Shown: positions 9,719 to 35,762 of the stretch, piece by piece
How positions within the stretch are numbered: position 1 is the first letter of the stretch
Layout of the letters: each line of letters starts with the position of its first letter
Notes under the pieces: generated by a model
The model's input: the letters and a program-made list of their open reading frames with translations, nothing else
The model's database searches: none
What the model was told of the DNA's origin: nothing
DNA from: Bacillota bacterium
Lineage (GTDB): Bacteria; Bacillota; Bacilli; Alicyclobacillales; SLC66
DNA: 36,872 nt
Reading direction: 5' to 3'
Assembly: GCA_021821025.1 (NCBI GenBank)
Contig: JAKACY010000002.1
Coordinates: 1-36,872 of the forward strand
Position numbers and translations under genes: made by a program

Positions 9719-9748
9719 GTGCCAGCCCAGCAAAGCGTGGGCTGGCAC
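9719..9748 (-). terminator. Hairpin terminating the ABC importer operon
   Basis: 11-bp GC-rich stem GTGCCAGCCCA / TGGGCTGGCAC with an 8-nt loop, 33 nt past the stop of the SBP gene on the minus strand. The T-tract is weak. Confidence 0.5.
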
Positions 9749-9780
9749 TCCGTCGAAGCTTGAGTTTGAAATCCTATGCA

Positions 9781-11454
9781 TCAACCTTTCTTGTTGAGGC
9801 CCTCTAGGAACTTGATGTCCTTTTCGCTTTTCGTGAATGAACTAGTGTTAAACGGCTTACCCATGTATTGCTGGGTGGTTTGCAGGTACTGCTGCAGTCC
9901 AAGACCATTGAGTCCTTGGATGTAGGTGTTCCAGTCCTTGCTAAGAGACTTGGTGCCGGCGATAAACTGGTCCATCCACTGGTTTACGTAGTTGTCGATA
10001 TTCGTCTGGTACATAGCATACTGCTGGACTTGGTCGGACGGAATCCATGCAAATCCAGGGTACACCAGTTTCGGTTGATGCCCGGTGTTATTCATCTCAG
10101 TTTCCAACTGGAGCATGGATTCTGATCCTTCACCGGTGTTCGGCGGATACGCGACGTAACCGTTTCTCCACTTGAAAGATTGGTACATCGGGCCGAGCTG
10201 ATTCCAGCCCCAGTTCTGTTGGGAACTTCCATTGTAGAATTCATTAAAGTTGGTGTTGAATATCGCCTGAGTACCCATGAGCCCTTTCTGGCCCTTTTTG
10301 GCGTATGTCCAATATTTTCCTTCGGGTCCAAAGTCCATCATCTGTGTCCCCAGCGGCGTATAAAGGAAGTTGATGAGCTTCATCACGGCAATCTGTTGCG
10401 CCGGCGTTGATGTATTCGTCAACGCGAAGGTGGCGCCAGAAGGTGGCAGTCCGTAAAAGGGAGAGTAATTAATGCCCTTCGGCCCTTTCAGCGGAGCCAT
10501 GGATACCCAGTCATTGAAGTGACTTTGTGGTGTACCGTAATTGTTGATGACGCACTGTTTACATCCGTAAGGGAAAACGCCGACCTTTCCGCTGTTCACT
10601 TGTGCTTGCAATTGCGTGTTGTTCTGCGTCATTGCAGTTTTATCCATCAGACCATTGGCGTACAGGGTATGCAGGTACTCCAAACCTTGCTTCCAACCGG
10701 ATTGCGCGGGTGCGAAAGCCAACTTGCCCTTAGGGTTGATGAAAAAGTAATCCGAGTTGGAGCCGTTTTCGTCATCGTACACGAAGGAGTTCATCAGAAA
10801 GGTGGTGGGATTCGAATGCCATCCACCGCCAGGACCGACGGTCGCGCCAACTAGTGGATCGATGCCATGTTTCTTAAAGACTTCCAGCACATTTTCAAAC
10901 TGACCGGTTGTTGTCGGCATGGACAGATGGAATTTTTTTAAAAGTTTTACGTTGATCCACATCTTTGCGGACCAGTCGCAATGCCAGCACCAGTTGTACG
11001 CAGGCAAGCCGTAGATGTCCCCGTTTGGCGCGGTGACGCCCTGTTTAAATCCGGGAACGGTGTTGATGGCTTTCCAGGCGTTTGGCGCGTATTTCTTCAG
11101 GAGATTGTTCAGGGGGAGGAAAATTCCCTCTGTGCCGTACTGAAGCTCTTGCACCGGCGTGAAGCTTCCGCCCCAGAAGACAGGGGGGTATTTGCCGCTC
11201 TCTAAAAGAAGAGATTCCTTGGTCTGTTCGTCGCTAGCCGGTGCTTCCACCCAGGTGATATTCATGTTGAATTTCTTCTCGACGTACTTTGTGAACCAGT
11301 TGGTATTCATATTGATGATCTGCGTACTCGGTGAGGCGAACATCGACACCTGCACGGGGGATGCAGCCTCAGCGGCGGGAATTGAAAGAGGCGCAGTAAG
11401 CCCCAACATCGCCATCGCAGAGGCGATAAACCCGAACTTTTTCCATAATTTCAT
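9781..11454 (-). CDS. Large family-1 extracellular solute-binding protein (LplA-like) of a carbohydrate ABC importer
   Basis: 557 aa. Signal peptide MKLWKKFGFIASAMAMLGLTAPLSIPAAEA|AS with no lipobox Cys. Size and sequence style match LplA-type oligosaccharide binders. It is the last gene after two permease genes. Confidence 0.85.
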   Translation of the reverse strand: MKLWKKFGFIASAMAMLGLTAPLSIPAAEAASPVQVSMFASPSTQIINMNTNWFTKYVEKKFNMNITWVEAPASDEQTKESLLLESGKYPPVFWGGSFTPVQELQYGTEGIFLPLNNLLKKYAPNAWKAINTVPGFKQGVTAPNGDIYGLPAYNWCWHCDWSAKMWINVKLLKKFHLSMPTTTGQFENVLEVFKKHGIDPLVGATVGPGGGWHSNPTTFLMNSFVYDDENGSNSDYFFINPKGKLAFAPAQSGWKQGLEYLHTLYANGLMDKTAMTQNNTQLQAQVNSGKVGVFPYGCKQCVINNYGTPQSHFNDWVSMAPLKGPKGINYSPFYGLPPSGATFALTNTSTPAQQIAVMKLINFLYTPLGTQMMDFGPEGKYWTYAKKGQKGLMGTQAIFNTNFNEFYNGSSQQNWGWNQLGPMYQSFKWRNGYVAYPPNTGEGSESMLQLETEMNNTGHQPKLVYPGFAWIPSDQVQQYAMYQTNIDNYVNQWMDQFIAGTKSLSKDWNTYIQGLNGLGLQQYLQTTQQYMGKPFNTSSFTKSEKDIKFLEGLNKKG

Positions 11455-11569
11455 AGAATCACAGCCTCCTCACTTGACCTTCTGGATATGGCATACGTTG
11501 GTATGCCCCTGTCTGCTTTGAATCTGTTTTGAATCTGTTTTCTGTGCATGTAGGACCTGCTGCGGTTGC

Positions 11570-12517
11570 TCAGTCTTTCAAAGATCCAATCATCACCCCT
11601 TTGACGAAGTATCGTTGGGCCAGCGGATATAAAGCGACCATCGGAATGCTGCCGATGACGATGAGTGAGTATTTAAGGAGGGTTGCAACGTTTTGGTAGT
11701 AGATCAACTCTTGTGGAGATAGGGTGCTCATGAAACCAAACCCTCCCATGCTAACATTGTTAAACTCGAGAATCGAACGCAACACCATGATGAGTGGATA
11801 CAGTGAAGTTGAATTCAGGAAGATAAGTGCTGGAAAGTATGAGTTCCAGTCTGTGACCATGGTTAGCAGCGCAATGACGGCGATGATAGGCTTTGAAATG
11901 GGGATGACGATACGCATGAAGAATCCGAAATCACTCGCACCGTCAATCTCGGCAGCCTCGCGCAGTGCCTGCGGCACACTGGCTTGGAAAAACGTCTTCG
12001 CCAGGATGATTAGAAACACGTTTAATGCAAAGGGTACAATCTGTGACCATATGGTGTTGAGCATGCCGAGGTCTTGGACGACGATGTAAAATGGGATAAG
12101 CCCCCCGTTGAACATCAAGGCAAACAGTAAGAGCCAGACGAAAATCTTGCGACCCACGAGGTCTCGGACGGACAGAGGATAGGCCATTAGCAAGGTCAGG
12201 ATGACTGTTAACAGCGTGCCGCCTACTGAGTAGATAATAGAGTGCCAGAGCCCCGGTAATACCGTGTTGTAGCGAAAGACGGCAGAGTACCCATCGAGCG
12301 TAAAGTGGACCGGCCATAACCAGACCTTCCCGTCGATGACAGCCGCACCGGAACTTAGGGATGAGCTGATAATGTAGATCATCGGGTAGACAACTGCAAT
12401 GCCTATAGCGGTCAAGGAGCTATAGATAAGGATGAGAAATAGTCGGTCGCCCGTTGATTCCCGAACATGATTTCTATGCTCAGACGATTTTGTGAATTGG
12501 GTGCTTGGCAGTGACAT
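11570..12517 (-). CDS. Carbohydrate ABC transporter permease (LplC-like)
   Basis: 315 aa, multi-TM. The EAA-type loop reads ALREAAEIDGASDFGFFMRIVIP. Confidence 0.9.
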   Translation of the reverse strand: MSLPSTQFTKSSEHRNHVRESTGDRLFLILIYSSLTAIGIAVVYPMIYIISSSLSSGAAVIDGKVWLWPVHFTLDGYSAVFRYNTVLPGLWHSIIYSVGGTLLTVILTLLMAYPLSVRDLVGRKIFVWLLLFALMFNGGLIPFYIVVQDLGMLNTIWSQIVPFALNVFLIILAKTFFQASVPQALREAAEIDGASDFGFFMRIVIPISKPIIAVIALLTMVTDWNSYFPALIFLNSTSLYPLIMVLRSILEFNNVSMGGFGFMSTLSPQELIYYQNVATLLKYSLIVIGSIPMVALYPLAQRYFVKGVMIGSLKD

Positions 12518-12553
12518 CCAGTTTCCCCCCGTGCTCGATAAGATTATGTAGAC

Positions 12554-13528
12554 TTAGAACAGGCTGGTATCGGACACATATCGAGCAACGATATTGGCGA
12601 TGACCAATAGAATGAATCCGATGACGGAGTTGAATAGACCGACTGCGGTTGCAAACGAGAAGTTCGCGTCGACCAATCCTACCTGGTAGGTGTAGGTCGA
12701 GATGACCTGAGATGTGCTCATGTTCAGTGGGTTCTGCATGAGAAAGACCTCCTCCAAGGATGCGGCGTTCAACAGTCCACCAATTGCAAGAATCACGAGG
12801 ACGATGACGGTAGGTTTGATACCTTGCCAATCAATGTTTAGAATCCTCTGAAATCTCGAAGCGCCATCAATGCGCGCGGCGTCGTATAGTTCTGGATTTA
12901 CGTTAGATAAGGCTGCCAAGTAGATTACGGCTCCATATCCAGTTGTTTGCCAGACGCCAGACCAGACGTATAAAGATGAGAATGCGCCGGGGCTGGACAT
13001 CCAATCAGGGACGTTGCTCACGCCAAACAGGTGGAACAAGCCTGCAAGCGGGCTTGCGCTAGGCGCGAGCAAAATCTGCATCATTCCCACCAGGACCACG
13101 GCGGAAACAAAGTAGGGAATATAGGTAATGGTCTGGATTGTCTTTTTGAACCACAAGTGCTTGACTTCATTAAGCGCGATGGCGAGAACGATGGAAGCGA
13201 TGGTGCCGATGATGAGAGAGTAAACTCCGATGGTCAGTGTGTTATCGAGAGTCGGCCAAAAGTAGGGGGACTGGAGCCAGAACTGCATCTCCTGCATGCC
13301 TATCCACGGGCTGTGCCAGATTCCTCCAACGGGATTGTACATACGAAAGGCAATCTGAATTCCAAGCATCGGCCAATAGTTGAAAATAGCCAAAAAAGCA
13401 AGCGGAAGACTGATCATCGCGTACAGTTGCCAGTGTCGGATGATTCGCTTTGCCAGACTCTTTCTTCTGATACCGGCACCGATAGACACTTCGTTGGATG
13501 CGTTGACAGCGTTGATTGGGATCCCCAT
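12554..13528 (-). CDS. Carbohydrate ABC transporter permease (LplB-like)
   Basis: 324 aa with RBS AAGGGGAGGG. The N-terminus RHWQLYAMISLPLAFLAIFNYWPMLG and the loop YDAARIDGASRFQRILNI are typical of LplB/YteP permeases. No ATPase gene is present, as is usual for CUT1 systems that use a shared MsmX-type ATPase. Confidence 0.9.
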   Translation of the reverse strand: MGIPINAVNASNEVSIGAGIRRKSLAKRIIRHWQLYAMISLPLAFLAIFNYWPMLGIQIAFRMYNPVGGIWHSPWIGMQEMQFWLQSPYFWPTLDNTLTIGVYSLIIGTIASIVLAIALNEVKHLWFKKTIQTITYIPYFVSAVVLVGMMQILLAPSASPLAGLFHLFGVSNVPDWMSSPGAFSSLYVWSGVWQTTGYGAVIYLAALSNVNPELYDAARIDGASRFQRILNIDWQGIKPTVIVLVILAIGGLLNAASLEEVFLMQNPLNMSTSQVISTYTYQVGLVDANFSFATAVGLFNSVIGFILLVIANIVARYVSDTSLF

Positions 13529-13809: not shown

Positions 13810-13871
13810 AATCATACATGATTTATTGTTGTAACTGCCGACATTCTATTACGAATTTTCCGACTTGTCAA
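13810..13871 (-). promoter_or_regulatory. Minus-strand promoter TTGACA-17-TAGAAT with downstream operator AATCATGTATGATT (plus coordinates 13810..13823), upstream of the ABC importer operon
   Basis: The reverse complement reads ggTTGACAagtcggaaaattcgtaaTAGAATgtcggcagttacaacaataAATCATGTATGATT. The -35 box is at 13866-13871 and the -10 box at 13843-13848. The same 12-mer core occurs at 13932 and 20421. Confidence 0.5.
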
Positions 13872-13900
13872 CCATCAAGAGCGGTTTCTTGACTCTGGAA

Positions 13901-13943
13901 TTGACTATTCATAATAATATTAATAGACTAAATCATGTATGAT
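13901..13943 (+). promoter_or_regulatory. Plus-strand promoter TTGACT-17-TAGACT with abutting operator ATCATGTATGAT (13932..13943)
   Basis: TTGACT at 13901-13906, a 17-nt AT-rich spacer, TAGACT at 13924-13929, 2 nt, then ATCATGTATGAT. The architecture and spacing are the same as at 20390..20439. Confidence 0.55.
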
Positions 13944-14035
13944 GTATAATATTTGTGGTGTTCGATAAGTTTGCTAAGTCGATCTCAGAGGAGTCGCATG
14001 AAGCAACCGCTCGGAGGCAGACAGGGGGAATATCG

Positions 14036-14436
14036 GTGAAAATCATCAACGTGGAAGCGTATACACTTCAGGAGCCAGTTGCACCACCGTTTGTTTGGAG
14101 ACGGGGGCTTCCTGGGTCGGGAACGATGAATGAGCTGATCTCGTTCGCACGAGTACTGGGTTAAAAGGCGGAATTACGGGTGCGCTTAGAATTGCACATC
14201 TAGCAGATTCATTTGGTATGAAAGCGGAAATACACGGGGGTGGCTTACCTAACCTTCACCTTGCGTGCGCAATCCCTAACAATTCCTATTATGAAATCCT
14301 GGTCTTTGGGGAACCTGCACAATTCGCCCACAATATAGGGCCAGATAGCTGCATTTTTGTGCCTAATGATCCAGGTATCGGATATCAATTCGATTGGGAG
14401 GAATTGAAACAAAAAGCAGTTCTGAAGATTGAATAA
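14036..14436 (+). pseudogene. Enolase-superfamily (mandelate racemase/muconate lactonizing enzyme-like) dehydratase with a large internal deletion
   Basis: GTG 14036 (RBS GGGGGA) opens VKIINVEAYTLQEPVAPPFVWRRGLPGSGT, a typical capping-domain N-terminus. From about 14134, in a different frame, the sequence reads ADLVRTSTGLKGGITGALRIAHLADSFGMKAEIHGGG...PNNSYYEIL...PGIGYQFDWEEL, a typical barrel C-terminus. The roughly 250 codons carrying the KxK/D/E/E catalytic residues are absent. Confidence 0.65.
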
Positions 14437-14691
14437 GACCATCCGGGATCGGTCCGGGCAGTATTGAATCGGAACTCATCATGTTCAGGTAGATCGAACA
14501 ATGGTTGGGAGAAATACCGCAACTCACGATTCAGAATATTCATCAGCTTGTGTATGATAGTAAAGGATCGTAGCATGGTAGGATGGTATTTTGGCCAGTG
14601 AGGAGTCCGGTTACGGGGAATTAGTGGGTCCTTTTGAAAAGTAAAGTACGAGAAGCTTTAAATTCCTTAAGACACGGTGGGGTGGATCAGA

Positions 14692-15528
14692 ATGGACCGG
14701 ATTGACGCGCACCAACACTACTGGAAGTTGGATCGTGGAGACTACGCCTGGTTGACTCCGGAGTATGGTCCCTTGTACCGGGACTTTCTTCCGCAGGACC
14801 TTCGTCCCTATTTAGACAGTTGTGGTATTTCAAAGACAATTGTTGTACAGGCTGCGCCGACCGTGGAAGAAACAGAGTTCTTACTCAAACTTGCTGACAA
14901 CCACCCTTCCATTGCCGGTGTTGTCGGTTGGTTGAATTTGGAGTCCGATGATTTTCCTGCAAAATTGCAACGCATGTCTCGGCATCCAAAGTTTGTAGGC
15001 ATTCGGCCCATGCTTCAGGATCTGCCGCAAGACGATTGGATCCTGAGACGGCAAGTAGTGGACAATGTCGCGATTATAGTGGAGCAAGAAATTCCGATGG
15101 ACATCCTGGTTTTCCCACGCCACCTACCGTACATTTCTCGCCTCTTACAAATGTTCCCCAAGCTGCATGGGGTCATTGACCATTTAGCCAAGCCGCCGAT
15201 CCATGCGCGGGTTTTGGAACCTTGGCGTTCCCTCATCGCTGAAATTGCAGAGTATCCATCTGTCATGTGCAAACTTTCCGGGATGGTGACAGAAGCAGAT
15301 CATGAAAACTGGAAGCCATCTGACCTACGTCCATACGTTGAACATGTCCTAAGCGTCTTCGGACCGGATCGAGTGATGTTCGGCAGTGACTGGCCAGTGT
15401 GTACAGCGGTTGCCGATTATGAGACGGTTTACCAGACTCTTCAGGATCTGCTACCGAAGGACTTATCTCATGAGAAATGGGATCTTATCTTTGGTGGAAA
15501 TGCCGCAAGATTTTACGGAATCGAGTGA
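14692..15528 (+). CDS. Amidohydrolase_2 (COG3618) family; candidate L-fucono-/L-galactono-1,5-lactonase
   Basis: ATG 14692 follows GGTGGGGTGGA. The N-terminus MDRIDAHQHYW, then VIDHLAKPPI, CKLSGMVTEA and MFGSDWPVC, match the COG3618 sugar-lactonase pattern. Confidence 0.8.
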   Translation: MDRIDAHQHYWKLDRGDYAWLTPEYGPLYRDFLPQDLRPYLDSCGISKTIVVQAAPTVEETEFLLKLADNHPSIAGVVGWLNLESDDFPAKLQRMSRHPKFVGIRPMLQDLPQDDWILRRQVVDNVAIIVEQEIPMDILVFPRHLPYISRLLQMFPKLHGVIDHLAKPPIHARVLEPWRSLIAEIAEYPSVMCKLSGMVTEADHENWKPSDLRPYVEHVLSVFGPDRVMFGSDWPVCTAVADYETVYQTLQDLLPKDLSHEKWDLIFGGNAARFYGIE

Positions 15529-15570
15529 GCACTCGTTCGTTCTCATATTTCGAAAGGGGCGTGAAATGAA

Positions 15571-16827
15571 TTGCCCAAAGACTGTAAACAACCGTGGTGG
15601 CAAGAAGCGAAATACGGAATGTTCATTCACTGGGGACTGTATGCTCAGTTAGCCGGAGAATGGAAGGGAATTCGGACACCCCATATCGGGGAATGGATCA
15701 TGAAGCATCTGGGCATCCCCGTCGATGAATATGAACAGGTGGCTCGACAGTTCAATCCGATCGATTTCGACGCATATCAATGGGTACGTTTGGCGAAAGA
15801 AGCTGGTATGAAGTACATCGTGATCACTGCGAAACACCATGACGGTTTCGCCATGTTTCATTCAACATGCTCGCCCTATAATATCGTGGATGCAACGCCT
15901 TTTAAAAGGGATCCCATCGCAGAATTGGCGCAAGCTTGTCAAGATGCGGGTATCAAGTTGTGTTTTTACTACTCCCAGGCTCAGGACTGGCATGACCCGA
16001 ATGGATATGGCTATGGGCCGATTCCAGATGAAAACAAAGACTTTTCAAAGTATCTCGAAGAAAAGTGCAAACCTCAACTTAGGGAACTGCTCACCCAATA
16101 CGGGGATGTTGGCCTCATTTGGTTTGACACGCCGCTGATTATGTCGGAGCAACATAGCAGGGAATTGGCGCAGTATGTCAAAAGTATACAGCCCAACTGC
16201 CTGGTCAGCGGTCGGATCGGCAATCAGATTGGAGACTATATGTCCACCGGAGACAATATGATTCCAGCTTTGCCGTACTATGGGGACTGGGAGGTTCCGG
16301 CGACGCTGAATGATACCTGGGGTTATAAATCATTCGACACCAACTGGAAATCTCCTAAAGACATCCTTCAGTTATTGGTCAAGATCAATAGTCGCGGCGG
16401 GAATTATTTATTAAACGTTGGCCCGGATGCGCGCGGAATTATTCCAGAAGCCAGTGCTCAGATTTTGCGGGAGGTTGGTCAATGGCTCGCTCGAAATGGC
16501 GCAAGCATTTACGGCACACAACCGGTTCCTGTTTTTCCGTACGAGTTGCCTTGGGGAACCTTCACCTACAAGCCAGGGAAATTGTATTTGCACGTCTTTG
16601 ACTGGCAAAAAGACATTCATATTCACGGCCTAGCCAATGATATGACAAAGGCTTATTGGCTTTCCACCGGGGCAGCGGTTCCCGTTGAACGTCGTTATAT
16701 TCCTTCACTCAAGCAACATCGAACTACCTTCCATCTTGGATCGACACCACAGGATTCGCTGGATTCTGTCATTTGTCTAGAGTTATATGGTGATCGCCTG
16801 ATGTTTGATTCACTGGATACCTTGTAA
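15571..16827 (+). CDS. GH29 alpha-L-fucosidase (paralog 1), no signal peptide
   Basis: TTG start; an in-frame TGA lies 9 nt upstream. Motifs: YGMFIHWGLY, TAKHHDGFAMF, GLIWFDTP (nucleophile Asp context) and GGNYLLNVGPDARG. Confidence 0.9.
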   Translation: MPKDCKQPWWQEAKYGMFIHWGLYAQLAGEWKGIRTPHIGEWIMKHLGIPVDEYEQVARQFNPIDFDAYQWVRLAKEAGMKYIVITAKHHDGFAMFHSTCSPYNIVDATPFKRDPIAELAQACQDAGIKLCFYYSQAQDWHDPNGYGYGPIPDENKDFSKYLEEKCKPQLRELLTQYGDVGLIWFDTPLIMSEQHSRELAQYVKSIQPNCLVSGRIGNQIGDYMSTGDNMIPALPYYGDWEVPATLNDTWGYKSFDTNWKSPKDILQLLVKINSRGGNYLLNVGPDARGIIPEASAQILREVGQWLARNGASIYGTQPVPVFPYELPWGTFTYKPGKLYLHVFDWQKDIHIHGLANDMTKAYWLSTGAAVPVERRYIPSLKQHRTTFHLGSTPQDSLDSVICLELYGDRLMFDSLDTL

Positions 16828-16901
16828 GGGCTCCTATTCGGAGTTGAATTCAACCTGTCTTACTACTATTTCCCATTTGGAAAGAAAGCGAGGATACCTC
16901 A

Positions 16902-17867
16902 ATGTCTAAATCTTTTGCCTCTCATCGTCCACTCGGTAGTACTGGACTAGTGGTCACGTCGCTCTGCGTTGGCGGTGCTCCATTGGGTGATATGCCAGAA
17001 ACCTTTGCCTACAGTGCACCAGAAGAGAATGCGCTAGCCACCATTCGTGCCGCCTTTGCAAGTCCCATCAACTTTCTCGATACTGCGGCCGCATATGGAG
17101 ATGGAGAAAGCGAGCGTCGAATTGGCAAGGTGATTCGCGAGATGGGCGGACTCCCAGCGGGCTTTGTATTAGCCACCAAAGCTGATCGCCATTTGCAAAC
17201 AGGAGACTTTAGTGGCGAACAAATCAAGCGTTCCATCGAAGGAAGTCTTCAGCGATTGGGACTTGACCGCTTGCAATATGTATATATCCACGATCCAGAA
17301 CACACCACTTTCGAAAATGTCATGGGATCGTGCGGACCGCTTGAAGTGTTGAAGAACTTTAAGGAGCAAGGAGTTATTGATCACATTGGTATATCCGGCG
17401 GTCCCATCGACATGCTGATTCGCTATGTACAAACAGGAGAGTTCAGCGCTGTGGAGACCCATAATCGCTACACCCTGCTCAACCGATCCGCGGAGCCTTT
17501 ACTGGATGTTGCCAATCAACTACATGTTGCGGTCATCAATGCGGCGCCCTACGGGAGCGGCATCTTAGCGAAAGGGCCAGATGCCTACGCTCGTTATGCA
17601 TACGATGATGCGCCCCCGGCGTTGCTTGAACGCGCTCGAGGGCTTGCAAGGGTCTGCCAGGAATACAATGTGCCGCTGGCAGCTGTGGCACTTCAATTCT
17701 CTCTAAGGGATCCCCGGATTACGAGCACTGTCGTTGGCATGACAAAGCCGGAACGCATCAGCCAGACTATGGAACTTGCCAGTTATCCCATTCCCGCGGA
17801 TATTTGGCCAAAACTAGATGCCATTGGGTTTGATACGGACAATCCCGAGGCCAATAGATTTAGATGA
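16902..17867 (+). CDS. Aldo/keto reductase; candidate L-fucose (D-threo-aldose) 1-dehydrogenase
   Basis: 321 aa with an AKR fold pattern (LDTAAAYGDGESERRIG, ATKADR, IHDPE, GISGG). The functional guess rests on the operon context and on the known AKR-type L-fucose dehydrogenase of Pseudomonas. Confidence 0.75.
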   Translation: MSKSFASHRPLGSTGLVVTSLCVGGAPLGDMPETFAYSAPEENALATIRAAFASPINFLDTAAAYGDGESERRIGKVIREMGGLPAGFVLATKADRHLQTGDFSGEQIKRSIEGSLQRLGLDRLQYVYIHDPEHTTFENVMGSCGPLEVLKNFKEQGVIDHIGISGGPIDMLIRYVQTGEFSAVETHNRYTLLNRSAEPLLDVANQLHVAVINAAPYGSGILAKGPDAYARYAYDDAPPALLERARGLARVCQEYNVPLAAVALQFSLRDPRITSTVVGMTKPERISQTMELASYPIPADIWPKLDAIGFDTDNPEANRFR

Positions 17868-17899
17868 ACACACGTCATGGCTAGGTAGGTGAAAACGCA

Positions 17900-18334
17900 A
17901 TGTTAATAGGGATTCCTGAAGTAATTTCTCCAGATTTGCTGAAGATCTTGATGGAGATGGGGCATGGAGACGAAATCGTATTGGCGGATGGAAACTTTCC
18001 GGCGGTAAGTCACGCTAATCGCTTAGTGAGAGCAGATGGGCACGGGATAGTCACTTTATTAGACGCAATTCTTGAGCTATTCCCACTGGATGCCTACGTC
18101 GATCATCCAGTTGCCCTCATGCAGGTTGTTCCCGGAGATACCGTGGAAACCCCAATTTGGGATACTTTCGCAGCTGTCCTTGGTGAGCGGACCGGAGTAA
18201 GTCAGCCATTTGAGTACATGGAGCGATTCTCATTCTACGAAAGGGCGCGCAAGGCGTATGCAATTGTTGCTACCGGTGAACGGGCATTGTACGCAAACAT
18301 GATCCTGAAAAAAGGCGTAATTTGCAAAAAATAG
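17900..18334 (+). CDS. fucU: L-fucose mutarotase (RbsD/FucU family)
   Basis: 144 aa. ISPDLLKILMEMGHGDEIVLADGNFP ... RFSFYERARKAYAIVATGERALYANMILKKGV is near-colinear with E. coli FucU as I recall it. Confidence 0.9.
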   Translation: MLIGIPEVISPDLLKILMEMGHGDEIVLADGNFPAVSHANRLVRADGHGIVTLLDAILELFPLDAYVDHPVALMQVVPGDTVETPIWDTFAAVLGERTGVSQPFEYMERFSFYERARKAYAIVATGERALYANMILKKGVICKK

Positions 18335-18647: not shown

Positions 18648-20183
18648 TTAGCGTAAGCCAAGCCGAAGTAACTGCTCTTCCGGTGCCCCGAGTTCCTTAA
18701 GCGTATTTTTGAGTCGCAACTGGAGTTCGGCCACCTTGTCGGGGTGGGACCGTGATAGGTTGATAAGTTCGTTCGGATCATTTTCTTTATCGCTAAGCCA
18801 CGTCTCAGTTTCCCATGAAACGCAATGATGGACCTGACGCCGGCCTGGGCGATAGGAGTGAACGGTCAGTGACTCGTCAGATGGCTCGCTCTCATACGGC
18901 CCTAACTCATAGGGGAGAAAGCGAGCCATGTGATGTCCATACCAGTAAAGCGGTTGGTTATCCTGGCAAGGCGATTGGTGAAGGATCCAGCGACCGTCAG
19001 TTAATGTGACGCTTTTTCCAAACTGTCCGGCTATGGCATACGATCGAATCGAGGTGTTAGGATCCAGCAGGACGGGATGGAGGTCTATTCCATGCCGTCC
19101 GGGTGGGCACGGTTTGTTCAGGGCACTGAGGACGGTCGGATATATGTCTACGAGTTGCACCAACTGACTTCGGCGTGTTCCAGCCTTTGCATCCGGGTGT
19201 GCCACAATAAAGGGGATATGTCCTACCGCGTCGTGTTCGTGTGTCTGCAGCTTTCCCAGTCTGCCGTGGTCCCCGTTATAAGTACCATGATCAGAAGTAA
19301 AAATAACCATCGTGTTGCGCCATAGGTTTAGTTCGTCCATCTTGTCGAGGAGTTTTCCCAACCACTTATCCACTAGCATCACGTGAGCGGCATAGCGGGC
19401 TTGGTAGTGACGTAGTTCATCGAAGGACATGTGGTTTCGCCAATGGTCGTAGGGGGCCATCGAACGCCAATGAGGTATATTGTAGCCGCGCGGGTCGAAT
19501 CGTTTAACCAGTTTCTCAGGCGCGTCCCAAGGTTCGTGCGGATCAAAACAGTCTACGTGAAGGTAGAACCCCTCATATGTGTGGTTATGTTCCAGCCAAT
19601 CTGCCGCCTTCGTAAAAACCTGAGCTGAAAAAGTATCCTTTTCATCGTGGTGCGTAAGGTGGACATTGCGAAAATGACGTTCTGTTTTATGAAAGGGTGG
19701 GTCTGGGTTAGGAAATGTGACAGGGTTAGTTTTCCAAGCGTCCGCCTCGTGCCCGCGAATAAACTCAAATCCGGAGTAACCCATATGGTAGTTACCTGAT
19801 CCTTGCTCCCACAAGTGAAAATGATCTGTGACGAGATAACTAATCGAAAAGCCTTCCGCTTGTACCTTTGCAAGCGACTGATTGGGTGGGCCCGAAACTT
19901 GACGAGGCAGATCCAGGTCTTCGTCCTCTAAAGGTCCCCAGCCGCGTTCGAGAAACTCATAGCGTCCTGTATAGATATCTCTACGAGCTGGCATACACGG
20001 GGTTGATCCGCACCATGCATGATCAAATACCACTCCGCGGGCAGCAAGCCGATCCATGTTCGGCGTCGGAACAGTCCATTCTGCCTGCTCCGGGCCTGTT
20101 ACCTGAGAGAGTGGCAGGCCATGATGATAAGGGCCACAATGATCCCTGCGTAGAGTATCACATAAGATAACGATGCAATTCAT
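18648..20183 (-). CDS. Cys-type (formylglycine-dependent) sulfatase, no signal peptide
   Basis: 511 aa. N-terminal metal-site context IVILCDTLRRDH. The CxPxR motif TPCMPARRDIYTGRY is encoded at 19983..19997 (reverse complement tgt atg cca gct cgt). A later block reads FTSDHG. Confidence 0.85.
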   Translation of the reverse strand: MNCIVILCDTLRRDHCGPYHHGLPLSQVTGPEQAEWTVPTPNMDRLAARGVVFDHAWCGSTPCMPARRDIYTGRYEFLERGWGPLEDEDLDLPRQVSGPPNQSLAKVQAEGFSISYLVTDHFHLWEQGSGNYHMGYSGFEFIRGHEADAWKTNPVTFPNPDPPFHKTERHFRNVHLTHHDEKDTFSAQVFTKAADWLEHNHTYEGFYLHVDCFDPHEPWDAPEKLVKRFDPRGYNIPHWRSMAPYDHWRNHMSFDELRHYQARYAAHVMLVDKWLGKLLDKMDELNLWRNTMVIFTSDHGTYNGDHGRLGKLQTHEHDAVGHIPFIVAHPDAKAGTRRSQLVQLVDIYPTVLSALNKPCPPGRHGIDLHPVLLDPNTSIRSYAIAGQFGKSVTLTDGRWILHQSPCQDNQPLYWYGHHMARFLPYELGPYESEPSDESLTVHSYRPGRRQVHHCVSWETETWLSDKENDPNELINLSRSHPDKVAELQLRLKNTLKELGAPEEQLLRLGLR

Positions 20184-20389
20184 CTATCCATCACCACTCA
20201 GTCCTTTGAAGTAGATGTTCCAGTTTTGTGTCAATCATGGCAGACGATTCGCCCATGGGGCCGGCTAATCGGAAGACTTCGGGTGTTGTGCCACCTCTAG
20301 AATCGTTGAGTGCATAAGACAGAAAAAGAAGGTCTGGTTCGCAATTATATGACTGTCAATCGATGATAGCGATTTTCCGGTTAGGGTAA

Positions 20390-20439
20390 TTGACTTATCT
20401 GAATATTATGCTTAGACTGAATCATGTATGATACATGAT
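20390..20439 (+). promoter_or_regulatory. Promoter TTGACT-17-TAGACT with the 19-bp perfect palindrome operator ATCATGTAT-G-ATACATGAT (20421..20439)
   Basis: TTGACT at 20390-20395, a 17-nt spacer, TAGACT at 20413-20418, 2 nt, then the palindrome. The layout matches 13901..13943. Confidence 0.6.
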
Positions 20440-20550
20440 GTTTGCAGCATTTTATCGAGCGTCTTTAACGCTTTGATCTACACTGTCATCATGTAGTTTC
20501 GCTGGTGATCATGTGATTTTTAGATAAGGTTGAGAAAGTGAGGAGTTGCC

Positions 20551-21648
20551 GTGAAGATCACGAAGGTGGAAAGCTTCGTCCTGCACGTACCACTCAATCC
20601 CCCGATTACCGATGCCATTAATTCACCTACGCATTGGGGGTTGCCTGGAGTACGGATATTTACGGACGAGGGTATCGTGGGATACGGCTATACCGGAACT
20701 TGCGCGTTAGGTGATGAGATGATCGCGGACACAATTGATCGGTACTACGCCCCCGCACTATTGCAGCGCGATCCATTTCTGGTCCGGGATATCTGGCAGA
20801 GTCTGCGTTATGGTGACTTGCACTGGGTAGGTAGGGCGGGCATCACGCAGATGGCGTTGGCCGCGGTGGATATCGCGCTGTGGGACATCATGGCTAAAGC
20901 CGCGGGAGAGCCATTGTGGCGGTATTTGGGCGGGCATAAGACAGACGGAATAAAGGCATACAACACGAATGGCGGATGGTTAAACTGGACGACTGACCGC
21001 CTGCTGCAGGATATAACCACCTTCGTTGATGAGGGTTTTACGGGCGTGAAGATGAAGGTGGGCAAACCGGACCCGAAAGAAGATTACGAACGGGTCAAGG
21101 CGGTGCGCCAAGCCATCGGAGACGACGTAGACCTGATGTTGGATGTCAATCAGGGCTGGAACATTACTACGGCGATGCGATGGGGTAAAAAGCTCGAAGA
21201 TTTTGACCCGCTATGGTTGGAAGAACCTCTGAACCCGGATGATACGATTGGCCATAAGAAATTGGCTGATGAACTCAACACGGCCATCGCGCTCGGGGAG
21301 CACCTATACACGAAGTACGCTTTTCGAGATTACATCCATCAAGGTGCGGTGGAGTACGTGCAGGTCGATGCGACCCGGGTCGGCGGTATCACAGAATGGT
21401 TGGAAGTCGCCGGGCTTGCGGCGGCGTATGACCTGCCCATCGTCCCACACGTTGGTGACATGGGCCAAATACACCAGCACTTGGTTGCAGCGACGAGAAA
21501 TGCGCCGATGCTGGAGTATATTCCGTGGATTCGGCATATCTTTGTTGAGCCGGTACAAGTGGAGAAAGGTCGTTACAGGTTGCCTGAATTGCCGGGAGCT
21601 GCGACGGAGGTCTCTCCGGAGGCGTTTGAAAGGTACCGCGTTCGCTAA
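20551..21648 (+). CDS. Enolase-superfamily, MR-subgroup acid-sugar dehydratase; candidate L-fuconate/L-galactonate dehydratase
   Basis: GTG start 5 nt after GAGGAG. Motifs: KxK (GVKMKVG), metal ligands in LMLDVNQGW, WLEEP and ALGEH, and the Asp/His dyad in VQVDATRVGGITE and IVPHVG. Specificity is inferred from context only. Confidence 0.8.
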   Translation: MKITKVESFVLHVPLNPPITDAINSPTHWGLPGVRIFTDEGIVGYGYTGTCALGDEMIADTIDRYYAPALLQRDPFLVRDIWQSLRYGDLHWVGRAGITQMALAAVDIALWDIMAKAAGEPLWRYLGGHKTDGIKAYNTNGGWLNWTTDRLLQDITTFVDEGFTGVKMKVGKPDPKEDYERVKAVRQAIGDDVDLMLDVNQGWNITTAMRWGKKLEDFDPLWLEEPLNPDDTIGHKKLADELNTAIALGEHLYTKYAFRDYIHQGAVEYVQVDATRVGGITEWLEVAGLAAAYDLPIVPHVGDMGQIHQHLVAATRNAPMLEYIPWIRHIFVEPVQVEKGRYRLPELPGAATEVSPEAFERYRVR

Positions 21649-21773
21649 AGACGCTTCTCATAAAATGGCCGCAGTCTTAAAATAGATGCTTCCTTAGCAT
21701 ATCGCATGAAAAATGAGTCCCGGCCGCAAGTTCAGTTCGCACAAGGAAAACAAATATTGAGGAGGGGATATCG

Positions 21774-23024
21774 ATGGCAGCCATACATCCAGGTGCCCAG
21801 TGGTTTCCGGACGCAAAGCTGGGTATGTTCATTCATTGGGGCCCGTATTCACTAAGAGGGATTGAGGCTTCGTGGCCGCTTCAGCCGCACAGCCATCAGT
21901 ATATCGCGACTGAGGAGTACGAGGCGTTGGCCCTGGACTTTTGCCCTGAACACTACGATCCTGTTAAATGGGCTCGCATGGCTAAAGAGGCGGGAGCCAA
22001 GTACGTCGTGCTGACGGCAAAGCACCACGATGGCTACTGTCTGTTTGATACCAAGACCACCGACTACTGTGCGCCGAAAACAGGGCCTGGCGTTGATCTC
22101 ATCACTCCGTATGTGGAGGCCGTACGCGCTGCTGGGCTCAAGGTCGGATTCTACTTCACCACGATTGATTGGCACGATCCTGATTTTGCTACTATTCCTA
22201 TCAAGTCCTACATCCAGTCTCCTAAACCATTTGTTTATGATCCGCAGCGCTGGTACAGTTTTCACCAACGTTTTATGACCCAACTCACGGAGTTATTGAC
22301 GAACTACGGGCAAATTGACCTGATCTGGTTTGACGTGCCAGGGTTCGGTGCGGATCGCTGGCGCAGCTATGAAGTCAAGCAGATGATGCTCAATCTACAG
22401 CCACACATCGTCATCAACGATCGGCTTCCTGAAGTGGGAGACTACGCAACACCGGAGCAGTTTATCCCACACCATCCACCGAAAGGCTGGTGGGAGACCT
22501 GCATGACCATGAACCATCAATGGGCGTATCACCCAGACGGGTCTACTTACAAGGATGTCCGCACCTTGATTCGAACCCTTACGGAGGTGGTGCACAAAGG
22601 GGGAAACCTGCTTTTGAACGTCGGACCGAAGCCGGACGGAACCTTTCCTCAGGAGGCTGTACAGCGCCTTGAGAGCATCGGCCAGTGGATGGGACATTCG
22701 GGATCCAGTCTGTACGGAACACGCCCTGCGCCTGAAGGTGCTTCAGAGTGTTTCTATGGGCCGCTGACAACTAAGGATAACACAGTGTTCCTGCACGTGT
22801 TGGACATTCCGCAAGGGCCTGTCGAACTGCGAGGCGTTGCTGGCGAGGTCGTGAGCGTTACACTGATGTCGACAGGGGATCCGCTATCATACCGAGTACA
22901 TAACGCACCACACTTCTGGGACTCTAGCGAGCAGCGACTTGAAGTGGATTTGTCCCGTGAGCAGTGCGATCCGTACAATACCGTCATCGCGGTTGAGTTT
23001 GCGCAACCCCCTTTGTGGCCGTAG
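21774..23024 (+). CDS. GH29 alpha-L-fucosidase (paralog 2), no signal peptide
   Basis: RBS GAGGAGGGG. Motifs: LGMFIHWGPY, TAKHHDGYCLF, DLIWFDVPG and GGNLLLNVGPKPDG. Confidence 0.9.
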   Translation: MAAIHPGAQWFPDAKLGMFIHWGPYSLRGIEASWPLQPHSHQYIATEEYEALALDFCPEHYDPVKWARMAKEAGAKYVVLTAKHHDGYCLFDTKTTDYCAPKTGPGVDLITPYVEAVRAAGLKVGFYFTTIDWHDPDFATIPIKSYIQSPKPFVYDPQRWYSFHQRFMTQLTELLTNYGQIDLIWFDVPGFGADRWRSYEVKQMMLNLQPHIVINDRLPEVGDYATPEQFIPHHPPKGWWETCMTMNHQWAYHPDGSTYKDVRTLIRTLTEVVHKGGNLLLNVGPKPDGTFPQEAVQRLESIGQWMGHSGSSLYGTRPAPEGASECFYGPLTTKDNTVFLHVLDIPQGPVELRGVAGEVVSVTLMSTGDPLSYRVHNAPHFWDSSEQRLEVDLSREQCDPYNTVIAVEFAQPPLWP

Positions 23025-23053
23025 ATTTTGGGTGATAGGGAGGACGGTGCTCG

Positions 23054-23344
23054 GTGGCAAGGTATGGAATGGTCATCAAGGTGATGCCGGGAAAAGTCGA
23101 GGAGTATGTGCGGTTGCAACAAGCCGTGTGGCCTGAGGCTACTCCATCTTTTTGAAAGACGATCTGCTTTTTAGTTACTACGAGTAACAGGTGAGGATTA
23201 CGAGGGAGATATGGCGAAGATGGCCGCCGATTCGATGACGAAAAAATGGTGGGCACTTTGCGAACCTTGTCAGGACCCATTGCAGACGCGGGCCCCTGGC
23301 GAATGGTGGCCCAGATGGAGGAAGTGTTCCGACTGGACGAATGA
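23054..23344 (+). pseudogene. Decayed L-rhamnose-mutarotase-family (RhaM/YiiL, DUF718) gene, paralog of 35763..36089
   Basis: GTG 23054 reads VARYGMVIKVMPGKVEEYVRLQQAVWPE, then about 30 nt are missing relative to the intact copy. A 1-nt deletion creates TAA (YYE*), and another 1-nt deletion lies near the end (GEWW/QMEEVFRLDE*). The nucleotide alignment to 35763..36089 is obvious by eye and includes the RBS region. Confidence 0.7.
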
Positions 23345-23417
23345 AGGCTGCGTGGTTCGTGGTGTCCGATGAATCTATGGAATTAGCGGATTTGATATAC
23401 CCGAAGGAGTGTGGAGA

Positions 23418-24719
23418 ATGGCAAAACTGCTGAGTAAGACAGAGTATGAGCAAAACGTGGCTGAGAGTCGCGATCGGCGGATGGCTTGGTGGCGAGAAGC
23501 CCGCTTTGGGATGTTCGTGCACTTTGGACTATACGCGCTCATTGGTAGAAACGAATGGGCGATGTCCTTGGAGAATTACCCAATTGCTGAGTATGAGAAG
23601 TTGGCCCAACAATTCAATCCAAAGCCTGGTGCGCCGAGGGAATGGGCGAAGCTAGCTAAGGCGGCAGGGATGAAGTACATGGTATTGACCACGCGGCATC
23701 ATGATGGCTTCAGCCTGTGGGATTCCAAGGTGAATCCGTACAATAGCGTGAACATCGGGCCGAAGCGGGACATCGTGCGCGAGTTCGTCGATGCTTGTCG
23801 GGAGTTCGACCTGCGCATTGGCTTTTACTCTTCGTTGATGGACTGGCACCATCCGGACGGTGGTCGTGCCGCGTATGATCGCGAGGCTCGCGCTCGCTTC
23901 ACAGCTTATGTGAAGGGGTTGAATCGCGAGCTCATGACGCAGTACGGAAAGATCGATGTACTATGGTACGACGTTGCTCTGCCCATGGAGACGTGGGAAG
24001 GTTGGGATTCGCTGACGATGAATCAGATGGTGCGCGAACTGCAACCGGATATCATTCTCAACAACCGCAGCAGACTGGACGAGGATTTCGGAACACCTGA
24101 GGAACACCTGACCGCGATGGACAGGGACTGGGAAGCGTGCATGACATTCAACGGCATCAGTTGGGGATATGTGGATTCTAAACAGGCGATGCCGTACAGC
24201 TATAATGCACAGCGCATCATCCGCATGCTAAATACCGTCACGGCAGGAGGAGGAAACCTACTTCTTAATATTGGCCCGGCGCCGGATGGATCTGTACCGC
24301 AGGAGGCCCAGGTACCGCTGGAAACGGTAGGGAGGTGGCTTGCGAGAAACGGGCAGGCGGCCTACGGGGTCAAGCAAAGAACGGAGTTTAGTAGGGCAAG
24401 TGGGGTATGCGGTAGTTCCCGCGAAGGCAACCGTGTATATCTGTGGAACTGGGTGTGGCCACGTGAGGGGCAGATGGCCCTCGGAGGGTTCGTAACACCC
24501 GTGAAGACTATTCGACTGGTGGAGGATGGTAAGCCGATTGAATTTGAACAACGCGGCCACCGCATTATTTTGAAAAACCTGCCCGCATCGTCGCCGGATG
24601 AAATTGCGGGTATCGCAGTTTTGGAACTGGAGTTTGAGGAACCTCCTGTGTTTCACTTCGCCAGTTACTTTCCGCAGCTGCACGGTGGTTTCGATTACGC
24701 AGAAAACGGGAAATTGTAG
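23418..24719 (+). CDS. GH29 alpha-L-fucosidase (paralog 3), no signal peptide
   Basis: ATG 23418 lies 8 nt after GAAGGAG. Motifs: RFGMFVHFGLY, TTRHHDGFSLW, DVLWYDVAL and GGNLLLNIGPAPDG. Confidence 0.9.
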   Translation: MAKLLSKTEYEQNVAESRDRRMAWWREARFGMFVHFGLYALIGRNEWAMSLENYPIAEYEKLAQQFNPKPGAPREWAKLAKAAGMKYMVLTTRHHDGFSLWDSKVNPYNSVNIGPKRDIVREFVDACREFDLRIGFYSSLMDWHHPDGGRAAYDREARARFTAYVKGLNRELMTQYGKIDVLWYDVALPMETWEGWDSLTMNQMVRELQPDIILNNRSRLDEDFGTPEEHLTAMDRDWEACMTFNGISWGYVDSKQAMPYSYNAQRIIRMLNTVTAGGGNLLLNIGPAPDGSVPQEAQVPLETVGRWLARNGQAAYGVKQRTEFSRASGVCGSSREGNRVYLWNWVWPREGQMALGGFVTPVKTIRLVEDGKPIEFEQRGHRIILKNLPASSPDEIAGIAVLELEFEEPPVFHFASYFPQLHGGFDYAENGKL

Positions 24720-24761
24720 GGAAAGCAGGATTGCGAGGGTTCAGCACAAACTTAGGAGGTT

Positions 24762-26108
24762 ATGGAGATGGCTTACTATGGGTGGCCGGATAAGTACGGG
24801 AATCCGGACTGGTTAGTAAACGCTCGCTTTGGACTATTCATCCACTGGGGACTATACGCTGCCGCAGCGCGCCACGAGTGGGTGATGAATCGGGAGAAAA
24901 TCAATTCTGAGAAGTATCGCAAGTACTTTGAGCATTTCGACCCGGATCTATACGATCCGACAGTTTGGGCGGACGCGGCTAAGGACGCAGGCATGAAGTA
25001 CTTCGTCATCACGACGAAGCATCATGAGGGCTTCTCCCTCTGGGACTCACAGTTGACCGATTATAAGGCAACGAATACGCCTGCCGGACGCGACTTGCTT
25101 CGTCCGATGTTAGATGCATTTCGTAGTAGAGGATTGAAGGTAGGCATGTATCATTCCCTCATCGACTGGCATCATCCGGACTTCCCGATCGACGGCTTGC
25201 ATCCGATGCGCGACGACGAGGCATTCCGAGAGCAGGAGAAAGATCGGAAAATGGAGCGCTACGTCGAATATCTGCACGGACAAGTGAGGGAATTGCTGAC
25301 GAACTACGGGAAGATAGACTACCTGTGGTTTGACTTCTCGTATTCCAAGATGGATTGGGGCTGGTCGAAAGGAAAGGGTGCTCTGGACTGGCAGTCTGAG
25401 GCCTTGGAACGGCTGGTCTTGGAACTGCAACCCGATATCCTGTTAAATGATAGGCTTGAACTGGGTCGCGGCGTTGTCACCCCGGAGCAGTACCAACCTC
25501 GGCAGGCCATCACGCAGGGCGGGCAACCAGTTATCTGGGAGGCTTGCCAGACGTTAAATGGGAGTTGGGGATACGACCGAGACAACCACGATTACAAGTC
25601 CGTCGAGATGCTGGTCAAGATGCTGATCGACAGCGTATCAAAAGGGGGCAACTTGCTGCTCAACGTCGGCCCCACAGGGCGCGGAGAGTTTGATGAGCGA
25701 GCATTGTCGAGCTTGCAGGGAATTGGAAAATGGATGCGCCAGCATTCACGATCGATTTACGGAGCAGGTAGTAGCGAATTTGACGCACCAGTAGATTGTC
25801 GTTATACACAACGAGGCGATCGGCTGTACTTGCATATCTACTCTTGGCCCTACCGTCACATTCACTTAAGCGGATTGGCTGGACGCATCAGTTACGCCCA
25901 GCTATTGCACGATGCTTCGGAAGTCAAGTATGTCGAGCACACGGGCCGTCAATCCGAATCGCCTATCGACGTCGCCGAGACAGACGGTACAGTCACTTTA
26001 GAGTTGCCAGTTCAACAACCAAATGTGGTAGTCCCTGTGGTCGAGTTGTTCTTGAACCACGGGAAGTATCCCGAAGGCGTGCGTAGAGTTCGACACGTGT
26101 CAGGGTGA
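24762..26108 (+). CDS. GH29 alpha-L-fucosidase (paralog 4), no signal peptide
   Basis: AGGAGG upstream; the start is ATG 24762 or, with better spacing, ATG 24768. Motifs: RFGLFIHWGLY, TTKHHEGFSLW, DYLWFDFSY and GGNLLLNVGPTGRG. Confidence 0.9.
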   Translation: MEMAYYGWPDKYGNPDWLVNARFGLFIHWGLYAAAARHEWVMNREKINSEKYRKYFEHFDPDLYDPTVWADAAKDAGMKYFVITTKHHEGFSLWDSQLTDYKATNTPAGRDLLRPMLDAFRSRGLKVGMYHSLIDWHHPDFPIDGLHPMRDDEAFREQEKDRKMERYVEYLHGQVRELLTNYGKIDYLWFDFSYSKMDWGWSKGKGALDWQSEALERLVLELQPDILLNDRLELGRGVVTPEQYQPRQAITQGGQPVIWEACQTLNGSWGYDRDNHDYKSVEMLVKMLIDSVSKGGNLLLNVGPTGRGEFDERALSSLQGIGKWMRQHSRSIYGAGSSEFDAPVDCRYTQRGDRLYLHIYSWPYRHIHLSGLAGRISYAQLLHDASEVKYVEHTGRQSESPIDVAETDGTVTLELPVQQPNVVVPVVELFLNHGKYPEGVRRVRHVSG

Positions 26109-33225: not shown

Positions 33226-33334
33226 GCTTGTACGGAGGACTCGTCATATTGGATCGATTCTCAAGAGACGCTGTGACTTTGTTGTTGTGCACTTTGCAGG
33301 CGAAGATGATGACTTCTATCGAGGAATGATCCTT

Positions 33335-34045: not shown

Positions 34046-34068
34046 TACTTTAGTGTTATTTTAGCTGA

Positions 34069-34260: not shown

Positions 34261-34266
34261 ATGAGG

Positions 34267-35694: not shown

Positions 35695-35762
35695 ACTTTG
35701 TCGGTTGCGCCAATATGGAAGATCGATCTGAATGAGTGCAGCCTCGAAAGGACGGCGTGACG

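Follow-up and report, generated by a model that had tools for sequence, protein, structure and literature searches.

The 19-bp perfect palindrome at positions 20421–20439 is very probably the operator of a GntR repressor of the FadR subfamily, encoded at 8742–9419 of the same stretch of DNA (36,872 nucleotides in its full length, hereafter the window). Comparison of sequences gives good support to the view that this element is bound by the GntR/FCD regulator of the window and that it overlaps the predicted transcription start of an operon encoding a dehydratase and three GH29 enzymes. A dimer of the regulator would bind the 12-bp inverted repeat ATCAT-GT-ATGAT (20421–20432), and the following seven nucleotides, ACATGAT, would act as an auxiliary third box in 7-bp phase. 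The elements of this site and of its two counterparts in the window are the following:

20421 to 20439: 19-bp perfect palindrome, composed of ATCATGTAT (20421–20429), G (20430) and ATACATGAT (20431–20439).
20388 to 20395, plus strand: -35 region AATTGACT of the operon-2 promoter, with the hexamer TTGACT at 20390–20395; the same letters are found at 13899–13906.
20413 to 20418, plus strand: -10 hexamer TAGACT of the operon-2 promoter, 17 nt past the -35 hexamer and followed by GA.
20421 to 20432: operator core O3, ATCATGTATGAT, in which ATCAT and its inverted partner ATGAT flank a central GT; the two-fold axis falls between 20426 and 20427.
20433 to 20439: auxiliary downstream box ACATGAT, which holds a third ATGAT pentamer in 7-bp phase and completes the 19-bp palindrome.
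13899 to 13943, plus strand: sister cassette O2, heading operon 1, with its -35 at 13901–13906, its -10 at 13924–13929 and its core at 13932–13943.
13811 to 13822, minus strand: operator core O1, within the leader of the operon for the ABC importer; the promoter of that operon, TTGACA-17-TAGAAT, extends from 13871 to 13843 on the minus strand.

The genes concerned, as mapped by Pfam and NCBIfam scans, are:

8742 to 9419, minus strand: regulator of the GntR family with an FCD effector domain (FadR subfamily; Pfam PF00392 and PF07729), the presumed repressor.
9781 to 13528, minus strand: putative ABC importer, with permeases at 12554–13528 and 11570–12517 and a putative solute-binding protein of 557 aa at 9781–11454.
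14036 to 18334, plus strand: operon 1, with an enolase pseudogene remnant (14036–14436) in first position.
14677 to 15528, plus strand: L-fuconolactonase-like amidohydrolase of operon 1.
15571 to 16827, plus strand: GH29 gene of operon 1.
16902 to 17867, plus strand: aldo-keto reductase of operon 1.
17900 to 18334, plus strand: FucU mutarotase of operon 1.
18648 to 20183, minus strand: sulfatase.
20551 to 26108, plus strand: operon 2, with an acid-sugar dehydratase of the enolase superfamily (20551–21648, 365 aa).
21774 to 23024, 23409 to 24719 and 24762 to 26108, plus strand: the GH29 genes of operon 2, assigned by Pfam.

The letters of the 9+1+9 palindrome are those given by an earlier interpretation of this DNA from its letters alone (the sequence-only reading). 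Under a first-order Markov model, 0.59 perfect palindromes with 9-nt arms are expected per 36.9-kb window, and 43% of the simulated windows hold at least one, so that a single such palindrome is not above chance. The significance of the site thus derives from the three exact 12-mers, their promoter context and their conservation across genomes, and not from the lone palindrome. The exact 12-mer ATCATGTATGAT is found three times in the window (13811–13822 on the minus strand; from 13932 and from 20421 on the plus strand), always in intergenic DNA and near a promoter. The combination AATTGACT-N17-TAGACT has exactly two matches (13899–13929 and 20388–20418; 0.23 expected), both of which continue with RA (AA or GA) and then with the 12-mer (13932–13943 and 20421–20432). 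The 17-nt spacer of the cassette at 20388–20432 is A/T-rich. The sequence-only reading had described this shared layout with the right spacing, letters and ends, and only the starts that it assigned to the cassettes lie 2 nt late: these positions, 13901 and 20390, mark the beginning of TTGACT instead of that of AATTGACT. It had also counted the site as the third copy of one cassette, which is accurate for the 12-mer; the copy at 13811, however, lacks the rest of the cassette, has a different promoter, and places its core 20 nt past the -10, versus 2 nt at both plus-strand cassettes. The operon-2 promoter itself, TTGACT-17-TAGACT, scores 9/12 over both hexamers with a weak -10, and such matches are no commoner than in shuffled sequences; it is the sole promoter-like site that a promoter scan detected in 20100–20600.

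A palindrome of this type is expected about 0.6 times per window by chance, the hairpin alone folds at -7 kcal/mol (z = -2.4), and both cassettes precede enolase-type genes, which means that they could stem from one duplication. A site bound by no protein—be it a palindrome that arose by chance, what is left of a promoter after duplication, or a hairpin formed by the 5′ end of the RNA—is nonetheless extremely improbable, as the core is conserved over dozens of species and tracks the regulator, and the predicted start site lies inside the palindrome. A recent segmental duplication was considered and rejected. Identity between the enolase genes is only about 32%, and divergence has affected the spacers and leaders as well (the two 17-nt spacers are identical at 9/17 positions, counted by eye), whereas identity is 100% in the -35, the -10 and the core; identical elements amid diverged spacers argue for selection rather than for recent duplication. 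An RNA element was also discarded, with no Rfam match in the window, a leader that folds no better than shuffled sequences (z = -0.75), and no terminator-like site. As for CcpA, the window holds four weak matches to its cre site (4.8 expected), none of them in the intergenic regions of these promoters.

The distribution of the core among relatives provides the main evidence for a protein-bound site. A sample of 160 related loci (80 genome loci plus metagenome loci, with windows of about 10 kb on either side) was compared, in 47 of which a GntR orthologue adjoins the dehydratase. The core ATC(A/G)TGTA(C/T)GAT is conserved in 55 of the 160: it is present in all 47 loci with a GntR orthologue and absent from 105 of the 113 without one, and the remaining eight hold the motif without the regulator. 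This co-occurrence (47/0/8/105) yields a Fisher p of 1.5e-32, uncorrected for phylogeny and hence ignoring shared ancestry. The motif therefore tracks the regulator rather than the dehydratase. The sequence-only reading had staked its interpretation on conservation in related genomes, and such conservation is indeed found for the 12-bp core. A looser pattern, ATC(A/G)TNNA(C/T)GAT, occurs at 120 places in 61 of 80 Paenibacillaceae loci, versus about six in shuffled sequences, and nearly all of its intergenic hits have GT or AC at the centre.

In these relatives, the core precedes gntR, dehydratase, lactonase, ABC-permease and GH29 genes. Orthologous permease operons with the core motif are found in L042, L049, L050, L051, and L056. 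Ten of the 80 genome loci have the 12-mer itself, or a one-base variant ATCATACACGAT (ATCGTGTATGAT on the other strand), in the 400 nt that precede the dehydratase start: L002, L003, L004, L006, L007, L008, L010, L011, and L024, which are among the closest dehydratase orthologues, and the more distant L062. In eight of these ten the 12-mer or its variant is located 80 nt or less from the start codon, and in L024 and L062 it is some 150–210 nt upstream. In L025, a typical relative, gntR and the operator are followed by SDR, enolase, Amidohydro_2, SDR, and FAH hydrolase genes, which make up the full enzyme set of the oxidative L-fucose route (PMC5507952, PMC6336799). The closest relatives of the dehydratase of the window belong to Paenibacillus and Cohnella genomes (up to 79% identity; best metagenome hit, 78%), and none of the genome and metagenome hits exceeds the 80% identity sought for examining conservation of the exact site. 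On this basis, the window derives from a Paenibacillaceae species not yet represented. An exact-protein look-up gave contigs of the same organism only, and the identical sequence is also present in the MAG GCA_027344195.1.

With respect to the promoter, the core adopts two main positions in the family. In the first, it begins 2 nt past the -10 hexamer, as in both plus-strand cassettes of the window (-35, 17 nt, -10, 2 nt, core). This arrangement is observed in 16 of 60 scored family sites (19 sites by a stricter test), level with the second one (16), in which the core lies within the -35/-10 spacer, often with another core 20–21 bp downstream, so that the pair brackets the -10. In the 19 sites of the first class, the upstream outer box of the operator is the -10 hexamer itself; likewise, TAGACT at 20413–20418 occupies the upstream outer box position of the family operator.

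Two full cores 20–21 bp apart are seen in L027–L029, L042, L051, L054, L056, L057, L061, L062, L069, L075, and L085 (26 bp in L051 and L056), and L006 has a core pair 28 bp apart. In such tandems, one core usually lies in the -35/-10 spacer and the other just past the -10. Tandem full cores like those of many relatives are absent from all three sites of the window. Two weak core-like sequences were noted on its plus strand: CTTGTGTATGAT (14547–14558; two mismatches), some 130 nt ahead of the lactonase gene, a position at which relatives carry a complete operator, and GTGGTGTTCGAT (13955–13966; three mismatches), 23 bp past the operon-1 core, a distance near the 20–21 bp tandem spacing of the relatives.

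The position of the symmetry axis is a point on which the present analysis departs from the sequence-only reading, which had taken the palindrome as probably the full-length site. On that view, the full 19-bp palindrome would be the dimer site, with the axis at G20430 and half-sites ATCATGT and ACATGAT 14 bp apart, and the other 12-mers would be truncated and weaker versions. To locate the axis without pre-selecting the 12-mer, AYGAT boxes near gntR were used as 5-mer anchors. An inverted partner 7 bp upstream was found for 155 of the 282 boxes (151 of these pairs with a GT/AC centre), and a direct partner 7 bp downstream for only 46. These counts place the conserved two-fold axis at the centre of the 12-mer (20426/20427), not at G20430. 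The 80 genome loci supplied 92 non-identical family sites, which are informative in their flanks as well; the family majority has G at position 4. When 99 non-identical sites from all 160 loci were inspected for a pentamer matching at least 4/5 bases 7 bp outside the inner box, one was present in 56% at -6 and in 23% at +15, versus about 2% at other offsets.

The seven nucleotides that the palindrome adds to the core can be judged from the 19 family promoters with the same geometry (-10, 2 nt, core). Positions 13–19 of these sites read AYATKAW (A 14/19, T 14/19, A 18/19, T 17/19, G or T 17/19, A 18/19, and T or A 19/19), a partial conservation that is weaker than that of the core, as positions 1–12 are near-invariant in the family. 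In this promoter class, the downstream box cannot be a -10 hexamer, yet it is conserved. ACATGAT at 20433–20439 matches AYATKAW at 7/7 positions, and the corresponding box of O2, GTATAAT, at 5/7. A dimer site of 19 bp would account for the perfect symmetry, for the recurrence of the exact 19-mer before gntR in Paenibacillus plantarum (L021), for the conservation of positions 13–19 within this class, and for the fit of GT (20426–27) and AC (20433–34) to the generic GntR formula NyGT-Nx-ACNy (PMC4494728). It is nevertheless quite improbable: the C at position 14 is present in only 5/19 sites, the inverted 7-bp pair outnumbers the third box as counted above, and a GT-N5-AC arrangement is unlike the 2–3 nt spacing of the FadR subfamily (PMC4494728). 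Moreover, the site of L021 is the only one of the 99 family sites with the perfect palindrome. Symmetry over all 19 bp arises incidentally, from an outer box that fits the consensus combined with an AC spacer that mirrors the central GT.

As a consequence, the designation of the palindrome as the full-length site is right in that the extra seven nucleotides match a conserved auxiliary box, which gives a site of about 19 nt, and mistaken as to the axis and the role of the palindromy. The suggestion that it is also the site of highest affinity finds no backing in the family weight matrix, which assigns it 24.9 bits; the other two sites of the window score 24.6 and 23.2, and all of these scores fall in the lowest quarter of the family. 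Extra ATCATGT heptamers in the leader, at 20488 and 20508, were considered as auxiliary operators and discarded, as the window holds 11 such heptamers (7.7 expected) and both are poor core matches.

The 7-bp phase of the outer boxes raises the question of whether more than one dimer is bound. Up to four phased pentamers spread over 26 bp, ATMAT-WW-ATCRT-GT-AYGAT-AY-ATKAT, could accommodate at least two dimers, either cooperatively or in overlapping registers, which at this site would be 20421–32 and 20428–39, with the -10 hexamer as the upstream outer box. The exact phase of the third and fourth boxes, the many relatives with two full cores bracketing the -10, and the cooperative binding of three dimers of E. 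coli NanR, another member of the FadR subfamily, to (GGTATA)3 (PMC8012715) are all consistent with such an array. However, the outer boxes are often -10 hexamers (TATCAT, TATAAT, TATGAT), so that part of their conservation may be due to the promoter, and the second register of the window, ATCATGTATCAT, has a mismatch at an otherwise invariant position; on balance, higher-order binding is unlikely. If the four-box array were real, the perfect palindrome would offer two equivalent registers, and the repressor and the sigma factor would compete for the very same bases.

Under the preferred interpretation, a single dimer on the 12-bp core with an auxiliary third box, the geometry suggests how the switch would operate. 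Since the core begins 2 nt past the -10 of a sigma-A-type promoter, it would cover approximately -5 to +8, and the site with its extra box would reach approximately +15. Transcription is predicted to start at about 20424–20427 for operon 2 and at about 13935–13938 for operon 1. Bound repressor would thus block the binding of RNA polymerase or the formation of the open complex, and repression by occlusion is likely. That the regulator represses and does not activate is inferred, as are the sugar specificity, the effector and the point where transcription starts. The same regulator is expected to act on the two further copies of this 12-mer, one at 13932 in the promoter of operon 1 and one at 13811 in the leader of the importer. 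Fucose/fucoside uptake, the GH29 fucosidases, and the oxidative L-fucose pathway would in this manner be switched on jointly once the repressor has been released by an intermediate of the pathway. Judging from the FCD domain and the metabolic context, the releasing effector would most plausibly be a carboxylate, such as L-fuconate or 2-keto-3-deoxy-L-fuconate. The assignment of operon 2 to the regulon of the importer and the first operon, already made by the sequence-only reading, is sustained by the identical 12-mer at all three promoters or leaders and by its co-occurrence with GntR across genomes.

The regulator proposed for these sites has the domain structure of the FadR subfamily. The GntR domain PF00392 spans residues 15–76 (E = 4.8e-14; 52.2 bits versus a cut-off of 27) and the FCD domain PF07729 residues 87–214 (E = 5.2e-16), and the closest solved structures are those of the FCD-type GntR regulators 3fms and 3sxy. 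Its identity to the orthologues (37–48% overall and 53–70% in the wHTH) is within the family spread, and conservation of at least 95% is seen in the recognition helix, VSNIPIRE, among 48 orthologues, including that of the window. Together with the loci in which motif and orthologue coincide and the lack of any locus with GntR and no motif, this conservation strengthens the case for the window GntR as the likely regulator, as had been supposed from the sequence alone. The protein falls far below the cut-offs of all the curated NCBIfam equivalogs compared (PhnR, CsiR, LldR, NanR, UxuR, ExuR, PdhR, and HutC), the best scores being those for PhnR (77.9 bits; cut-off 271.5) and CsiR (59; cut-off 218), with NanR at 33.8 (cut-off 260). 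Most relatives appear to autoregulate gntR. In contrast, the gntR of the window has no operator of its own, as no match within two mismatches precedes it.

Several observations were made in the vicinity of this gene. A G+C-rich hairpin without a T-run, GTGCCAGCCCA...TGGGCTGGCAC, lies at 9720–9760 on the minus strand, after the binding-protein gene and before gntR. Just downstream of gntR, a 110-aa ORF (8260–8592, minus strand) holds a Cas12f1-like/TnpB TNB domain and is probably the remnant of an IS200/IS605-type element. A core-like 12-mer with two mismatches, ACCTTGTATGAT, at 8701, adjoins this ORF.

Regarding the predicted regulon, the genes of the oxidative route in the window are the lactonase-like gene, the aldo-keto reductase, FucU, and the enolase-superfamily dehydratase; SDR and FAH genes of the route are absent from the 36.9 kb. 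In the NCBIfam comparison, the L-fuconolactonase-like gene scores 252 bits (cut-off 400) and FucU 139.4 (cut-off 141), and the best hit of the dehydratase, also below its cut-off, is L-talarate/galactarate dehydratase; we infer the substrate of the dehydratase from its context. Terminator-like hits between the genes of operon 2 number four, no more than in shuffled sequences (mean 3.7).

The remnant that heads operon 1 is a decayed enolase-superfamily gene, with pieces of about 43 aa (N-terminal) and about 89 aa (C-terminal) and a missing middle of about 700 bp, and it is about 32% identical to the intact dehydratase. One of the two enolase-type genes that stand behind the identical promoter-operator cassettes is therefore dead. 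In operon 2, a frameshifted RhaM-like (L-rhamnose mutarotase) gene, read by eye, occupies approximately 23050–23345 on the plus strand, within the 384 bp that separate the first GH29 gene from the second; relatives have an intact RhaM directly after the dehydratase, and the intact RhaM of the window is at 35736–36089. In the region 33287–35694, the first 49 aa of a GH29 ORF (34102–35694, plus strand) match the C-terminal end of Amidohydro_2, and a 252-aa ORF ahead of it has no Pfam hit; a lactonase with a frameshift may have become joined here to a fucosidase, or else the MAG may be misassembled. The leader of the importer operon would comprise about 300 nt on the minus strand, between a start predicted near 13836 and the ATG of the permease at 13528, whereas in orthologous permease operons the operator is located within 70 nt of the start codon.

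On the other hand, control of the sulfatase gene, on the other side of the intergenic region, through this site finds no support. The sequence-only reading had suggested that it might also be affected. However, the palindrome lies about 240 bp from the sulfatase start codon, and the only minus-strand promoter element near the site is an isolated TATAAT (20349 to 20344), about 70 bp from the palindrome and without a usable -35, for which reason a sulfatase promoter under operator control was rejected. A functional link of the sulfatase to the pathway via sulfated fucans is plausible, and nothing supports its regulation through 20421–20439. A minus-strand TTGACA is found 30–32 bp upstream of the -35 of both plus-strand cassettes (20353–20358 and 13866–13871). 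At 13871, it is part of the importer promoter, and at 20358 the corresponding -10 position reads CAGACC. The TTGACA at 20358 may be what is left of a decayed back-to-back divergent promoter, which would suggest that the sulfatase replaced an older divergent operon.

The proposed system resembles the FadR-subfamily GntR repressors of sugar-acid catabolism (B. subtilis GntR, E. coli DgoR, UxuR/ExuR, LldR, PdhR), which likewise combine a wHTH GntR domain with an all-helical FCD domain and bind a short A/T-rich inverted repeat over the promoter of catabolic or transport operons. By analogy with these repressors, a carboxylate intermediate of the pathway would likewise be expected as effector. Operators of the subfamily follow NyGT-N(2-3)-ACNy with TKGT/ACMA boxes; here the half-site is ATCRT (box TCRT), and the canonical G/C are replaced by A/T in the window, where the three cores read ATCAT-GT-ATGAT and thus have A/T at positions 4 and 9, at which the GT...AC of a canonical GntR site would fall. 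In the family-majority core, ATCGT-GT-ACGAT, GT and AC are 2 nt apart, as in the GntR/UxuR/HypR group (PMC4494728). A further difference is the target, the oxidative use of L-fucose and fucosides in Paenibacillaceae, and the regulator is an orthologue of no curated family.

Additional boxes also have precedents. GntR-family operators can be flanked, on one side or on both, by extra half-sites whose distance from the centre is 7–12 nt (Suvorova, Korostelev and Gelfand 2015, PMC4494728), and the centre of the box at 20435–20439 is likewise 10.5 nt from that of the core; unlike those half-sites, the upstream extra box doubles here as the -10 hexamer. The regulator and its motif are not listed in that paper, and neither a 'fuc' entry nor any of the three 12-mer variants searched is present in its supplements. 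NanR of E. coli, also an FCD protein of the FadR subfamily, binds as cooperative dimers to a three-box operator with 7–8 bp periodicity located over the promoter (PMC8012715). However, the NanR boxes are direct repeats, whereas here the inverted pair is primary and the third box optional.

Local control of L-fucose utilisation loci, each including a transporter, is known from regulators of other families or lineages, most of which control the phosphorylative FucIKA pathway and not the oxidative route. E. coli FucR belongs to the DeoR family and Campylobacter jejuni FucR to the IclR family. Besides these two (for C. jejuni, PMC12566272), such regulators include the FucR predicted in Halomonas (PMC5507952) and, within the GntR family, FucR from Bacteroides thetaiotaomicron (PMC3878776). 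A literature search for six variants of the core 12-mer found none in a relevant paper, and nothing relevant on a fucose GntR regulon in Paenibacillus. The present analysis thus points to a specific regulon for the use of fucosides and L-fucose in Paenibacillaceae, in which a single GntR/FCD repressor would act through the 12-bp core ATCRTGTAYGAT on three promoters of the window. It would also tie a so far uncharacterised clade of 365-aa enolase-superfamily dehydratases to the L-fucose pathway, which may aid their annotation. The proposed mechanism is ordinary for a bacterial gene switch and is the one usually employed by local sugar-acid repressors.
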